14,225 nucleotides of DNA from a virus (Duplodnaviria; Heunggongvirae; Uroviricota; Caudoviricetes). The notes beneath the pieces were generated by a model, which was not told the origin of the DNA, did no database searches, and was given only the letters and a program-made list of their open reading frames with translations. Shown here piece by piece: positions 7,901 through 12,852 of the stretch. The stretch is from positions 1-14,225 of the IMG/VR virus record IMGVR_UViG_2778261499_000009; one strand, 5' to 3'. Each line of letters begins with the position of its first letter. Position 1 is the first letter of the stretch. Position numbers and translations under genes: made by a program.

Positions 7901-8395
7901 ATGTCTGATGAAAAAGGAATAATAAGTAGGATTACAGATGCAGTTTCTGGTGCCGGAGGTGCTCTGATGAGTGCTGTTGGCGCAGTAAAGGAAATCCAGA
8001 AAATGCAAATAGACTACTCAGTAAAAGAAAAAACATACGAACTTGTCGATAAGCTCATGGATGCCCAACAGCAGCAAATGTCACTTAATGAGCTTTTGAT
8101 GATTTCTAAGGACAAGATTATTGAGCTTGAAGAAAAGATAAATCGAGCCTCTAAGTGGGAAGAGGAAAAGAAAAACTATGAGATGTATACACCTACTGTT
8201 GCTACGGTGGTTTATCGTCTCAAAAAATCGGCAAATACCGGTCAGCCAATGCACTATCTTTGCGCTCAATGCTATGAATCTTCTGTGAAATCCATACTTC
8301 AATACGAAGGATTTGCACCACCTTCTAACCATAGGATGAGATGCCATAGGTGTAACGCCTCCTATCTGTTCCCTAAATCTGCATTTTCTAAATAA
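7901..8395 (+). CDS. hypothetical coiled-coil protein with glycine-zipper-like N-terminus and C-terminal CxxC...CxxC motif (sieB-slot gene)
   Basis: The track ORF starts at a GTG at 7892; an ATG at 7901 has the SD-like AAGAGAG upstream. Contains [14 protein letters not shown], a coiled-coil-like middle ([45 protein letters not shown]) and CAQC...(23 aa)...CHRC. Convergent with N, overlapping its 3' end by 8 bp. Confidence 0.6.
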
Positions 8396-8711
8396 GTGAT
8401 ATAGATTTACCTTTAATTTTCTGGCGTCCTCTGCATGTTATGCCGCGTTCGCCAGGCTTGCTGTACCATGTGCGCTGATTCTTGCGCTCAATACGTTGCA
8501 GGTTGCTTTCAATCTGTTCGTGGTATTCAGCCAGCACCGTAAGGTCTATCGGATTCAGTGCGCTTTCTACTCGTGATTTCGGTTTGCGATTCAGCGAGAG
8601 AATAGGGCGGTTAACTGGTTTTGCGCTTACCCCAACCAACAGGGGATTTGCTGCTTTCCATTGAGCCTGTTTCTCTGCGCGACGTTCGCGGCGGCGTGTT
8701 TGTGCATCCAT
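8388..8711 (-). CDS. N: antitermination protein N (lambda-type)
   Basis: From the internal ATG at 8709-8711 the 107-aa product [31 protein letters not shown]... matches recalled lambda N; the longer track ORF (133 aa) corresponds to the upstream-extended reading frame. Confidence 0.9.
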
Positions 8712-8869
8712 CTGGATTCTCTTGTCAGTTAGCTTTGGTGGTGTGTGTGAGTCGTAGTCCTGAACGAAAACACCCCACGATTGGCTCATTTGCAGCTAAT
8801 CCGGATTCGCACTTCCGGCCAATGCTTCGTTTCGTATCACACACCCCAAAGCCTTCTGCTTTGAATGCT

Positions 8870-8900
8870 GCCCTTCTTCAGGGCTTAATTTTTAAGAGCA
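8870..8900 (-). promoter_or_regulatory. nutL (boxA + boxB)
   Basis: Minus-strand reading TGCTCTTAA-AAATTAA-GCCCTGAAGAAGGGC; boxB is a perfect hairpin identical to recalled lambda nutL boxB; boxA as CGCTCTTAA in my recollection of lambda. Confidence 0.8.
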
Positions 8901-8939
8901 TCACCTTCATGTGGGTTAGTGCGTCCTGCTGGTGTGTTT

Positions 8940-8968
8940 AGTATCACCGCTAGTGGTATTTGTGTCAA
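8940..8968 (-). promoter_or_regulatory. pL promoter
   Basis: Minus strand -35 TTGACA (plus 8963-8968), 17-nt spacer, -10 GATACT (plus 8940-8945); overlaps oL1/oL2 as in lambda. Confidence 0.75.
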
Positions 8969-9002
8969 CACCGCCAGAGATAATTTATCACCGCAGATGG
9001 TT
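8942..9002. promoter_or_regulatory. oL1-oL2-oL3 cI operator sites
   Basis: TATCACCGCTAGTGGTA (8942-8958), CAACACCGCCAGAGATA (8966-8982), TATCACCGCAGATGGTT (8986-9002); match recalled lambda oL sites, with one difference in oL1. Confidence 0.85.
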
Positions 9003-9157
9003 ATCTGTATGTTTTTTATATAGATTTATTTTTTGCAGGGTTGTGTGGCTTGGGAGGTGATCGAGAGATCAGAATTGCGTTGTTTAGTGAGTTGCACCTA
9101 TTAATTTTAAAATAAATACAATTGGTTATGTGTTTTTAGGTGGGGCGATCGTGAGGC

Positions 9158-9183
9158 AAAGAAAACCCGGCTCGGTGGCCGGG
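9158..9183 (-). terminator. intrinsic terminator ending the cI-region leftward transcript (timm-like)
   Basis: Minus-strand reading: stem CCCGGC / loop CACCGA / stem GCCGGG followed by TTTTCTTT, starting 10 nt after the stop of the 9193..10050 gene. Confidence 0.6.
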
Positions 9184-9192
9184 TTGATGGGA

Positions 9193-11199: not shown

Positions 11200-11231
11200 C
11201 GCTCTTACACATTCCAGCCCTGAAAAAGGGC
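11200..11231 (+). promoter_or_regulatory. nutR (boxA CGCTCTTAC, boxB GCCCTGAAAAAGGGC)
   Basis: boxA at 11200-11208; boxB perfect hairpin at 11217-11231; matches recalled lambda nutR. Confidence 0.8.
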
Positions 11232-11255
11232 ATCAAATTAAACCACACCTATGGT

Positions 11256-11290
11256 GTATGCATTTATTTGCATACATTCAATCAATTGTT
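11256..11290 (+). terminator. tR1-like terminator region between cro and cII
   Basis: Hairpin GTATGCA / loop TTTATT / TGCATAC (11256-11275) followed by an AT-rich tract; position equivalent to lambda tR1 (Rho-dependent in lambda). Confidence 0.5.
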
Positions 11291-11300
11291 ATCTAAGGAA

Positions 11301-11333
11301 ATACTTACATATGGTTCGTGCAAACAAACGCAA
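11301..11333 (-). promoter_or_regulatory. pRE with cII-binding TTGC-N6-TTGC repeat
   Basis: Minus strand TTGCGTTTGTTTGC (plus 11320-11333) overlapping the cII start; -10-like AAGTAT (plus 11301-11306). Confidence 0.6.
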
Positions 11334-11607
11334 CGAGGCTCTACGAATCGAGAGTGCGTTGCTTAACAAAATCGCAATGCTTGGAACTGAGAAGACAGCG
11401 GAAGCTGTGGGAGTTGATAAGTCGCAGATCAGCAGGTGGAAGAGGGACTGGATTCCAAAGTTCTCAATGCTGCTTGCTGTTCTTGAGTGGGGTGTCGTCG
11501 ACGACGACATGGCTCGATTGGCACGACAAGTTGCTTCGATTCTCACCAATAAAAAACGCCCGGTGTGCAAGACCGAGCGTTCTGATCAAATACAAATGGA
11601 ATTTTAA
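11311..11607 (+). CDS. cII: cII transcriptional activator (lambda type)
   Basis: From the ATG at 11311 (SD TAAGGAA upstream): MVRANKRNEALRIESALLNKIAMLGTEKTAEAVGVDKSQISRWKRDWIPKFSMLLAVLEWGVVDDDMARLARQV... matches recalled lambda cII; the C-terminal few residues differ. The track ORF begins 60 nt upstream. Confidence 0.95.
   Translation: MVRANKRNEALRIESALLNKIAMLGTEKTAEAVGVDKSQISRWKRDWIPKFSMLLAVLEWGVVDDDMARLARQVASILTNKKRPVCKTERSDQIQMEF
11548..11579 (-). terminator. oop-like antisense terminator overlapping the cII 3' end
   Basis: Minus-strand reading: stem CGCTCGG / 9-nt loop / CCGGGCG (one mismatch) followed by TTTTTTATT; position as for lambda oop RNA. Partner promoter not identified. Confidence 0.35.
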
Positions 11608-11629
11608 CAACATCCAACGAGGTAATTAT

Positions 11630-11902
11630 ATGCGAAACAAAGGCTTTAATCCACCTGATACACACAAAGAAGCTAAGCGTTTGCGCTTCCTTCGTTCCAT
11701 TGATGAAAGAACTCAAATCTCTTTTGTGAAAGTTGCCAGAACTGAGCTTCTGAAGGCTGAGGCGAGGGCGTTGCTCCCGTCTCTACCAAAAGAGGAGGGA
11801 TATACGTTCATTCCAAACGCATTTCTGGAAAAGCTTCTCAAAGAAGACATATCCGTAAGTCAGTTTAACGATGTTCTTAAGGTCTTTCGTCAAGGCAGGT
11901 AG
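11630..11902 (+). CDS. hypothetical protein inserted between cII and the replication initiator
   Basis: 90 aa from the ATG at 11630 with GAGG 9 nt upstream (MRNKGFNPPDTHKEAKRLRFL...); the longer track ORF (11318) overlaps cII out of frame and is not credible; the stop is followed 2 nt later by the next start. Confidence 0.55.
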   Translation: MRNKGFNPPDTHKEAKRLRFLRSIDERTQISFVKVARTELLKAEARALLPSLPKEEGYTFIPNAFLEKLLKEDISVSQFNDVLKVFRQGR

Positions 11903-11904
11903 TT

Positions 11905-12852
11905 ATGAGCAATACAGCAAAAATCTACGATTTCAGCGCCGCACACGAGCGCAGGAGCAACAGGATGGAGAACCAGAAAACTGGTTACATTCCGTTGTAC
12001 CGGAGCATTCTGAAACAGTCATGGGCGAAAGATGTTTATCTTCGCACCCTGTGGGAAAACCTTCTCCTGAATGCCGCCAGAAAGCCATACAAAGCGAATT
12101 TCAAAGGTCATGAATGGCATCTGCAACCCGGTCAACTGGTTGTGACAGCAGCTGATTTAGGTCTTCAGTTATGCGACAGACATGGCAAGCCAGCAAGCCG
12201 TGATCAGGTTGAGCGGATGCTTCAGGTTTTTGTGAAAGAGGGGATGATCTCCATTGATGGAGAGAAGCAAAAAGGTCGTGTGATAACCATCACAAATTAC
12301 CATGAATATGCTCAAAAAATGGACAATTTACCCGCACATGAAGCCGCACAAACAACCGCACATGATGCAGCACATGACGAAGACAGTAATGGCGCGGCTT
12401 TCAGAGCACATGCCGCACATGAAAGCGCACATGAAGCCGCACAAACAACCGCACATCATGAACAAGAAGGTATTAACAAGAATATAAATAATACCCCCCT
12501 ACCCCCCAATGGGGGAGGCGATGGGCAGGTTAAACCTGAACGTCGCAAGGCAGAACGAATCGACTACGAATCCTTCCTGAACGCCTACAACACCGAAGTC
12601 GGTGACAGACTTCCACACGCTGTTGCGGTCAACGAGAAACGAAAACGCCGCCTGAAGAAAATCATCCCGCAACTGAAAACGCCAAACGTGGACGGTTTCA
12701 GAGCGTATGTCAGGGCGTTTGTGCATCAGGCCAAGCCGTTTTACTTCGGAGACAACGACACGGGCTGGACAGCTGATTTTGATTACCTGCTGAGGGAAGA
12801 TTCGTTAACTGGAGTACGGGAAGGGAAGTTTGCAGACAGGGGGATTGCATGA
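11905..12852 (+). CDS. phage replication initiator (O-like / P22 gene 18-like) containing the origin
   Basis: 315 aa; N-terminus [10 protein letters not shown] resembles lambda O MTNTAKILNF; position immediately before the helicase; a central low-complexity AHE/AHD-repeat linker is encoded by the iteron DNA; stop overlaps the helicase start (ATGA). Confidence 0.7.
12330..12520. repeat. ori-type iteron cluster + AT-rich tract + C5/G5 palindrome inside the initiator gene
   Basis: GCACATG-containing units recur at least six times; an exact 30-bp direct repeat CGCACATGAAGCCGCACAAACAACCGCACAT occurs at 12333-12362 and 12427-12456; followed by AT-rich GGTATTAACAAGAATATAAATAATAC and CCCCCCTACCCCCCAATGGGGGAGG. 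Confidence 0.65.

Follow-up and report, generated by a model that had tools for sequence, protein, structure and literature searches.

Shuffling of modules among lambdoid phages has long been known, as have hybrids of lambda and P22 type and the fact that the cI-N and sieB slots vary. In lambda (NC_001416), the early regulatory region has the order ea10, slot, N, nutL, pL/oL, slot, cI, oR, cro, nutR and cII. Wild phages of lambda immunity are described as having a conserved switch and variable flanks, with the interval between cI and N as a place where mosaic diversity is concentrated (Degnan et al. 2007, as cited in PMC8585504). Recombination at short homologies, promoted by phage recombinases or annealases, is presented as an established route to mosaics in lambdoid phages (PMC3945230). 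In this study, a stretch of 14,225 bases (IMG/VR virus record IMGVR_UViG_2778261499_000009, positions 1 to 14,225; hereafter the window) was compared with these systems. The window very probably represents the early region, with functions for regulation, recombination and replication, of a P22-like podovirus prophage located at argW in Escherichia coli APEC O2-211, and a natural recombinant of three parts. As a lambdoid phage region it is an ordinary mosaic; the full three-part combination is present in one strain alone. The junctions lie in short conserved patches and were mapped to the base, which gives the locus some value as a worked example.

The gene order of lambda is retained in the window. 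Cro, the two boxB elements and five of the six operators do not differ from those of lambda and cI is 98.3% identical, whereas the N-oL stretch reaches only 92.6%. Lambda features not found in the window are rexAB, sieB, the Red genes with gam (exo/bet/gam), ral and O/P, and the cIII and kil alleles differ. The phage ev099 (NC_049953, Radostvirus) carries the same rip1, N, NYN-domain gene, cI (including four substitutions relative to lambda), cro and cII as the window and, of the phages available, can best stand in for the core's donor, but it is a lambda-like siphovirus in which lambda-type int/xis, exo/bet/gam and O/P/ren surround this core. The P22-like coliphages Kapi1 (MT813197), JEP4 (MT740315), CUS-3 and HF4s have the att/xis end, the RecT/Gp157 arm, the arm from cII via a 90-aa ORF and the initiator to the helicase, and the argW-type integration in common with the window. 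They differ in their immunity regions, which contain repressor genes of P22 c2 size (651 nt), and have their own N-like genes and cargo. P22 itself (NC_002371) resembles the window in the type of its virion genes, the layout of the early region, the gp12 helicase and the C-terminal domain of gp18, while Erf/Arf/Abc, gene 24, the c2/cro/c1 immunity, ori and the N-terminal domain of gp18 are its own. In the wild lambda-immunity phages of the 2007 set (mEp332, EF120456; HK542, EF120458), operators, cI and cro are conserved, and the flanks and the cI-N interval vary. Like the window, mEp332 has lost rexAB and shows the same four changes in cI; unlike the window, it has kept ral and sieB, and its rex slot is occupied by another gene, of 345 aa.

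Segment structure and junctions

The window is a 100% match to the chromosome of E. coli APEC O2-211 (NZ_CP006834.2, 3625728-3639952, reverse strand). This strain is a clinical isolate from the air sac of a bird and is pathogenic for chicken. Past the window, nin genes, Q, lysis genes, terminase, portal, scaffold, coat, gp4/gp10, ejection proteins, arc/ant (immI) and tailspike are annotated in RefSeq, so that the same prophage possesses P22-type virion assembly genes together with immI arc/ant, as is typical of P22-like phages (Lederbergvirus). The best whole-window phage matches are also members of Lederbergvirus. At the far prophage end, intS adjoins tRNA-Arg argW (RefSeq annotation). Because of the P22-type genes downstream and of intS and argW at the far end, the window is assigned to a P22-like prophage at argW, as its early region. 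The features of the window are compiled in Table 1.

Table 1. Features of the window with their positions, strand and supporting evidence.
Feature	Position	Strand	Evidence or remark
Prophage end, att core: 16-nt copy of the tRNA-Arg argW 3' end	1689..1704	-	sequence TGGTGTCCCCTGCAG
Excisionase, TorI-like	1777..1977	-	RefSeq torI; Kapi1 excisionase at matching place
Kapi1-like early-left block: DUF2737 ORF, 104-aa ORF, Gp157, RecT, 103-aa ORF, kil, cIII	4671..7285	-	97.7% (blastn); 99-100% per 100 bases up to 7285
Siphovirus Gp157-family protein	5162..5650	-	Pfam PF05565 (Sipho_Gp157) E 1e-36; phrog_253 E 2e-53
RecT-family single-strand annealing protein	5628..6539	-	Pfam PF03837 E 3.7e-32, 111.9 bits vs cut-off 24
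kil, host cell-division inhibitor	6929..7081	-	phrog_2055 E 1e-35; 57% to lambda Kil over 30 aa
cIII-family gene, non-lambda allele	7066..7251	-	phrog_550 E 7e-13; 42% to P22 C3
Left junction patch, 62 bases common to Kapi1, ev099 and lambda; GC-rich hairpin inside	7224..7285		four-way alignment
ea10 (DUF2528), lambda-type	7276..7644	-	121/122 aa identical to lambda Ea10; phrog_646
Conserved stretch upstream of sieB slot	7800..7885	+	86 bases, 87% to lambda and P22 (blastn)
rip1 (ring interacting pore 1), prophage abortive-infection protein, sieB slot	7901..8395	+	PDB 9OOX chain L; phrog_1244
N antiterminator, 107 aa	8388..8711	-	Pfam N36 E 2.5e-26; RefSeq coordinates
nutL	8870..8900	-	boxB 8870-8884 identical to lambda; boxA 8893-8900 TGCTCTTA vs lambda CGCTCTTA
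pL with oL1-3	8940..9002	-	pL TTGACA-17-GATACT; oL1 8942-8958, oL2 8966-8982, oL3 8986-9002
timm-like intrinsic terminator just past NYN stop	9164..9185	-	terminator scan; lambda alignment; Timm annotated in mEp332
NYN-domain (PIN-like nuclease fold) protein, 285 aa, rexAB slot	9193..10050	-	Pfam PF01936; phrog_5783 E 1.5e-119
cI repressor, lambda specificity	10178..10891	-	S24/HTH; T3A, K71N, R129K, D139G vs lambda
oR3 10902-10918, oR2 10925-10941, oR1 10949-10965	10902..10967		identical to lambda; pR TTGACT-17-GATAAT 10939-10967
cro	10992..11192	+	66/66 aa identical to lambda Cro
nutR region: rutA/boxA, boxB, rutB	11200..11252	+	identical to lambda
cII, 98 aa	11311..11607	+	5' part lambda-like; 3' part allele of P22-like JEP4, CUS-3, HF4s
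Right crossover interval inside cII	11344..11412		JEP4 mismatch at 11344; lambda/ev099 mismatches from 11412 onward
oop-type terminator hairpin, antisense to cII 3' end	11553..11583	-	terminator scan; position analogous to P22 and lambda oop
90-aa ORF between cII and initiator, function unassigned	11630..11902	+	phrog_2519 E 1.9e-57; present in Kapi1, JEP4
O-like replication initiator	11905..12852	+	Pfam Phage_rep_O E 3e-15; phrog_345 E 9e-100; RefSeq start 11965
Putative origin within initiator gene	12330..12495	+	about nine 12-bp CCGCACA-type repeats in two clusters, then AT-rich stretch
DnaB-type replicative helicase, P22 gene 12 type	12849..14225	+	Pfam DnaB_C E 9.5e-78 and DnaB N-terminal domain

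Four segments of the window were aligned to lambda by blastn (7224-7795 at 97.6%, 7800-7885 at 87%, 8388-9185 at 92.6% and 10174-11603 at 97.5%). The third covers N, nutL and pL/oL up to the rexB stop and the fourth covers cI, oR, cro, nutR and cII (both E = 0). The rest of the window contains short lambda patches at most, and no lambda match was returned by blastn for the sieB slot (7886-8387), the rexAB slot (9186-10173) or the sequence past 11603. Likewise, lambda exo, bet, gam, ral, sieB, rexA, rexB, O and P gave no tblastn match in the window (E 1e-3 for O and P). The siphovirus ev099 matches 7224-11603 in a single piece at 99.25%, with 100% identity in nearly all 100-base bins from 7301 to 11200. 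Kapi1 matches two stretches (4671-7285 at 97.7%, 11542-14225 at 97.4%; blastn), JEP4 is aligned gap-free from 11294 to 14225 at 98.1%, and the nucleotide similarity of P22 comprises 12478-14225 (80%) plus short patches and nothing more (blastn). A first-pass annotation, made from the sequence alone, had recognized N, nutL, pL/oL, cI, oR, cro, nutR and cII as close to lambda, which agrees with these alignments and with the operator sequences. Its placing of a lambda-type immunity core between non-lambda recombination (RecT/Gp157) and replication (O-like initiator and DnaB-type helicase) modules was confirmed by Pfam and tblastn. The description of the genes left of N as unlike lambda is correct for RecT and Gp157 and for the lack of exo/bet/gam, but does not apply to the lambda-like segments 7224-7795, including Ea10, and 7800-7885.

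The architecture comprises three pieces. A central piece of approx 4.1 kb (7286 to ~11350), essentially identical to ev099, contains ea10, rip1, N, nutL, pL/oL1-3, the NYN gene, cI, oR1-3/pRM/pR, cro, nutR and the beginning of cII. To its left, a Kapi1-type early-left arm (cIII, kil, RecT, Gp157) is attached, and to its right a replication arm of JEP4/Kapi1 type with the 3' part of cII, the 90-aa ORF, the O-like initiator with its iterons and the gp12-type helicase. The left junction is located at 7285/7286, between cIII and ea10, where all diagnostic bases of a four-way alignment are of Kapi1 type through 7285 and of ev099/lambda type from 7286. The right crossover is placed inside cII, since JEP4 differs from the window at 11344, and lambda and ev099 differ from 11412 onward. 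The encoded CII is ~95% identical to that of lambda, the differences being found chiefly within the last 25 residues. Thus, a placing of the junctions directly beside N and cII was rejected: the lambda-like block extends 1.1 kb further left, and the right junction lies within cII. Besides these breakpoints, additional internal boundaries relative to other phages are seen at 8759 (upstream of N), 10184 and 10588 (C-terminal domain of cI), 11313 (start of cII) and 12478 (past the iterons).

Such a mosaic could have arisen when lambdoid phages or prophages residing together underwent homologous recombination within short stretches shared by both. The stretches used for the exchange would be cII and, between cIII and ea10, the 62-base hairpin-bearing patch. 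In line with the classical picture, the parts determining specificity travel together, namely operators and cro with the N-terminal domain of the repressor, and the iterons with that of the initiator; the same applies to the parts binding a partner, the initiator C-terminal domain and the helicase. The near-identity of a 4-kb block in a siphovirus and a podovirus prophage indicates a very recent exchange.

Occurrence in Escherichia coli genomes

The recurrence of the segments was determined in 5426 complete E. coli genomes. The lambda-immunity core (cI N-terminal domain, oR and cro; 10589-11200) is present in 611 of them; lambda immunity specificity is a common wild immunity type. The central ev099-type block was found in 47 genomes, of which 46 belong to further field isolates, often from birds, the left junction in 78 (77 others) and the right junction in 43 (42 others). 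The whole three-part window occurs in one genome, that of APEC O2-211.

These counts bear on an assembly artefact, in which two lambdoid prophages of the strain would have been merged into a chimeric contig at shared repeats. Both junctions do sit in sequence common to many lambdoid phages, a second place in the APEC O2-211 record matches part of the window, and a frameshift in the coat gene of the prophage hints at imperfect sequence quality. However, the record is a finished chromosome in version 2, the gene order is coherent and P22-like from att to intS, and the presence of the left junction in 77 and of the right junction in 42 other complete genomes implies that both joins are natural. 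An artefact of this kind is therefore very improbable.

Immunity core

The natural recombinant carries a repressor/operator switch of lambda type: six 17-bp operators of lambda sequence are found at pL and pR/pRM, together with a cI DNA-binding domain and a Cro of lambda specificity. The operators oL2, oL3, oR1, oR2 and oR3 are identical to those of lambda, and oL1 has one change at central base 9; the hexamers of pL and pR are identical as well. Of the 237 residues of the cI repressor, 233 are shared with lambda cI (98.3%). The differences T3A, K71N, R129K and D139G (Met1 numbering) fall, one each, in the N-terminal arm, late in the DNA-binding domain, at the end of the linker and in the C-terminal domain, while residues 4-70 with the helix-turn-helix are unchanged. 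The first-pass annotation had placed substitutions near the N-terminus and in the linker, but the four changes are not concentrated there. The prophage should be homoimmune with lambda, as judged from cI and the six operators, and should be inducible via RecA/SOS, with the cleavage site and the S149/K192 dyad being intact.

The suggestion that the cI substitutions might represent ind or ts alleles was rejected. All four are also present in the wild phages ev099 and mEp332, and the positions A66 (ts857) and E117 (ind1), the cleavage site A111-G112 and the dyad S149/K192 are all unchanged. The part of cI encoding the C-terminal cleavage and oligomerisation domain (10184-10588) shows 92-98% DNA identity with the repressor genes of the heteroimmune phages 2B8 and 720R6. 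Since this part is common to heteroimmune phages, cI itself is regarded as mosaic, with the boundary between its two domains.

The N protein is identical to lambda N in 104 of 107 residues; the three substitutions are all outside of the RNA-binding motif, and the arginine-rich motif is identical. Together with boxA/boxB nut sites past pL and pR, these are the components of lambdoid N antitermination, and N would act at the lambda-type nut sites. The N gene proper spans 8388-8711 (107 aa), as given by RefSeq, and not the longer ORF 8388-8789. The boxA of nutL, TGCTCTTA, deviates from lambda CGCTCTTA by one change and is found in this form in ev099 as well. In the rrn boxA consensus, the first base is T, as in the nutL boxA of the window.

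An origin of the core from laboratory lambda instead of a wild phage, by contamination or through an engineered lambda-P22 hybrid, is hardly credible. It is generally known that lambda-P22 hybrids are classical laboratory constructs, and the operators and Cro are those of laboratory lambda. Against this stand the loss of rexAB and sieB with other genes in their place, the low identity of the N-oL stretch to lambda (just 92.6%), the four cI substitutions in common with wild ev099 and mEp332, the 46 other field isolates carrying the block and the avian clinical origin of the host.

Replication arm

The replication genes had been described as a gene 18/gene 12-type pair in place of lambda O/P. 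For the helicase, which has 90.4% amino acid identity to P22 gp12 over 458 aa, and for the lack of O/P this is correct. The initiator, on the other hand, resembles P22 gp18 in residues 185-309 alone (C-terminal 126 aa, 58%). By BLASTP, its N-terminal domain was matched to neither gp18 nor lambda O, although the Pfam model Phage_rep_O does hit this domain. Neither homology to gp18 over the whole length nor an origin of P22 type was found; DNA similarity to P22, and also to HK446, begins at 12478, right after the iterons.

The CCGCACA-type 12-bp iterons at 12330-12460 are in frame and encode a His/Ala-rich repeated peptide in the linker of the initiator. By analogy with the ori iterons inside lambda O, we infer that these repeats and the following AT-rich stretch constitute the replication origin. 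The initiator would bind its own iterons and recruit the DnaB-type helicase encoded by the phage itself, with no loader of lambda P type.

The extra ORF noted to the right of cII proved to be a member of a phage protein family (phrog_2519). At the N-terminus of lambda O, a short stretch resembles it faintly (34 aa with 29% identity, E 0.006). A Phage_rep_O motif was recorded in this ORF by the annotators of Kapi1. The ORF may be what is left of the N-terminal domain of an initiator.

Integrity of the prophage

Nothing in the data contradicts the mosaic nature of the window. Several points nevertheless weigh against the reading as a functional, simple three-part recombinant. The 3' end of cII (11564-11601) is unlike lambda, ev099 and Kapi1 and matches JEP4 and Stx2a phages instead, so that more than two parents or several events are likely. 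Three reference phages do not suffice to deduce in which direction and order the exchanges took place. The central-base change in oL1 and the T3A exchange in cI could slightly shift the affinity of the repressor. Finally, the gene of the P22-family major capsid (coat) protein, located outside the window, is marked as frameshifted in RefSeq, and the prophage may not be fully functional. The frameshift reflects either a defective prophage or a sequencing error in the genome.

A more far-reaching view would be that of a decaying, non-inducible remnant, whose regulatory and replication modules no longer cooperate and whose mosaic is a genomic fossil. Apart from the coat gene, the early-left ORFs at 2559-3209, annotated as pseudogene fragments, and the NYN gene, annotated as split, would fit this view, which is nonetheless unlikely. 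The NYN ORF is intact (285 aa, the length found in ev099) and the ORF at 2559-3209 is continuous; the regulatory genes, initiator and helicase are of full length, operators and nut sites are complete, and att, xis and intS are all present. As the genome is finished, the lone frameshift may stem from an error in sequencing a homopolymer. If the prophage were defective, the interpretation of the window as a three-part natural recombinant would not be altered.

Genes in the sieB and rexAB slots

Both accessory slots of the lambda-type core are occupied by other genes. In the sieB slot, no match to SieB of lambda or P22 was found; just the 86 bases upstream of it are conserved. The P22 counterpart of these bases carries the sieB promoter (29690-29720) with the RNA start at 29727 (P22 annotation), and rip1, located downstream in the window, may be transcribed from a promoter of the sieB type. 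The 164-aa gene product is identical in 163 of 164 positions to the E. coli protein of PDB entry 9OOX, chain L (E 1.4e-105), the sole difference across residues 3-164 being Y96H. Rip1 was described by Patel et al. 2026, as summarised in PMC13434031, as a prophage-encoded single-protein abortive infection system, which assembles as a 12-mer around the small terminase or portal ring of a superinfecting phage and forms a membrane pore. The founding example in Pseudomonas is situated between prophage terminase genes according to the same summary, whereas rip1 of the window is found in the sieB slot beside N. The Rip1 protein of the window is predicted to act as a pore-forming defence triggered by ring-shaped phage assembly proteins. 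In phage and RefSeq records, rip1 is labelled as a hypothetical protein. An 88-aa ORF on the minus strand is annotated across rip1 in ev099 (window 8081-8347).

Between cI and oL, no DNA or protein match to rexA or rexB was obtained, and the slot is filled by a single gene encoding an NYN-domain protein. The replacement is precise: similarity to lambda ends four bases past the cI stop and restarts at the terminator following lambda rexB. Co-transcription of the NYN gene with cI is a natural conclusion from this precise replacement; from its position, the gene is probably transcribed together with cI from pRM/pRE, with transcription ending at the timm-like terminator. In RefSeq, the gene is represented by a CDS of 117 aa and a pseudogene fragment, while the ORF of the window is unbroken and of the same length (285 aa) as in ev099.

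The assignment as NYN/PIN-like nuclease is based on the NYN domain (Pfam PF01936; 36.8 bits vs a cut-off of 24.2), on conserved acidic active-site residues, with D9, D164, D170, D189 and D191 being invariant in 37 homologues, and on the predicted NYN fold. The AF2 model (pLDDT 87) has the NYN ribonuclease domain of MARF1 as best fold match in the PDB (probability 1.00, TM 0.69 normalised to the target, E 1.4e-3), while a sequence search of the PDB with the protein yielded noise alone. The family comprises ~7,000 clusters, none of which carries a name beyond "NYN domain-containing protein". Homologues are found stand-alone beside glmS in Proteus and next to HigBA on a mobile element of Pseudomonas. 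With PADLOC-DB v2, the NYN protein produced weak local matches of ~45 residues each (HEC-09, E 2e-4; NYN model, E 1.4e-3), and none of the ten accessory ORFs had a convincing match. In the literature collection searched, no paper linking an NYN gene to the rex slot was found.

The NYN cassette is present in 54 phage records with several repressors, including 2B8 and 48 Stx2a phages which have other repressors, but in none of the listed phage records of the 2007 study. The Rip1 cassette, which includes N, was found in three phages alone, namely ev099, HK446 and 720R6, the latter two having other immunities; ev099 is the sole phage with both cassettes. As NYN and Rip1 occur in different sets of phages with differing immunities, the two cassettes are considered to move independently, and the earlier view that the rexAB and sieB slots are swapped independently holds at the level of the population. 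Tentatively, the NYN protein might be a single-gene abortive-infection or exclusion nuclease, expressed in the lysogen along with the repressor and carried as a mobile cassette across immunities and proteobacterial elements, and might form a two-layer defence flanking N together with Rip1. This cargo gene is the only open lead at the locus. Both cargo genes, presumed to be expressed in the lysogen, could affect the phage susceptibility of avian pathogenic E. coli, with a known mechanism in the case of Rip1 and a candidate in the case of the NYN protein.

Left arm and attachment site

The RecT protein of the left arm was matched by BLASTP to neither lambda Bet nor P22 Erf. No lambda Exo match was found beside it, where the neighbours are Gp157 and a 103-aa ORF without Pfam family; a dedicated RecE search was not part of this comparison. 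A function of Gp157 as Gam analogue is not claimed; besides the PHROGs label "Mu Gam-like end protection" there is just a sub-threshold Pfam match (E 0.008). The true start of cIII is probably internal, as in RefSeq (7066-7200).

No Rfam family was matched anywhere in the window at gathering thresholds. ARAGORN did not detect a tRNA in the window, and the att core is a mere 16-nt fragment of one. The match of the Kapi1 genome to the window begins at 1689, and the att site of Kapi1 is recorded at its positions 1-17. With xis and intS at opposite ends of the prophage, attP of the phage genome would have int on one side and xis on the other, an arrangement also found in Kapi1. The first 1248 bases of the window belong to a host gene of the csc cluster encoding a sucrose-type MFS transporter (cscB-like). 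Between this gene and the att core, a fragment of an ORF with a DUF4942 domain (1328-1597, minus strand) is located, which may have been left behind by an element that occupied the integration site earlier. A continuous ORF of 216 aa at 2559-3209 (minus strand) is split by RefSeq into four fragments (DUF550, a dATP/dGTP pyrophosphohydrolase domain and two DUF551); it looks like a chimeric early-left gene formed by intragenic recombination rather than a pseudogene.

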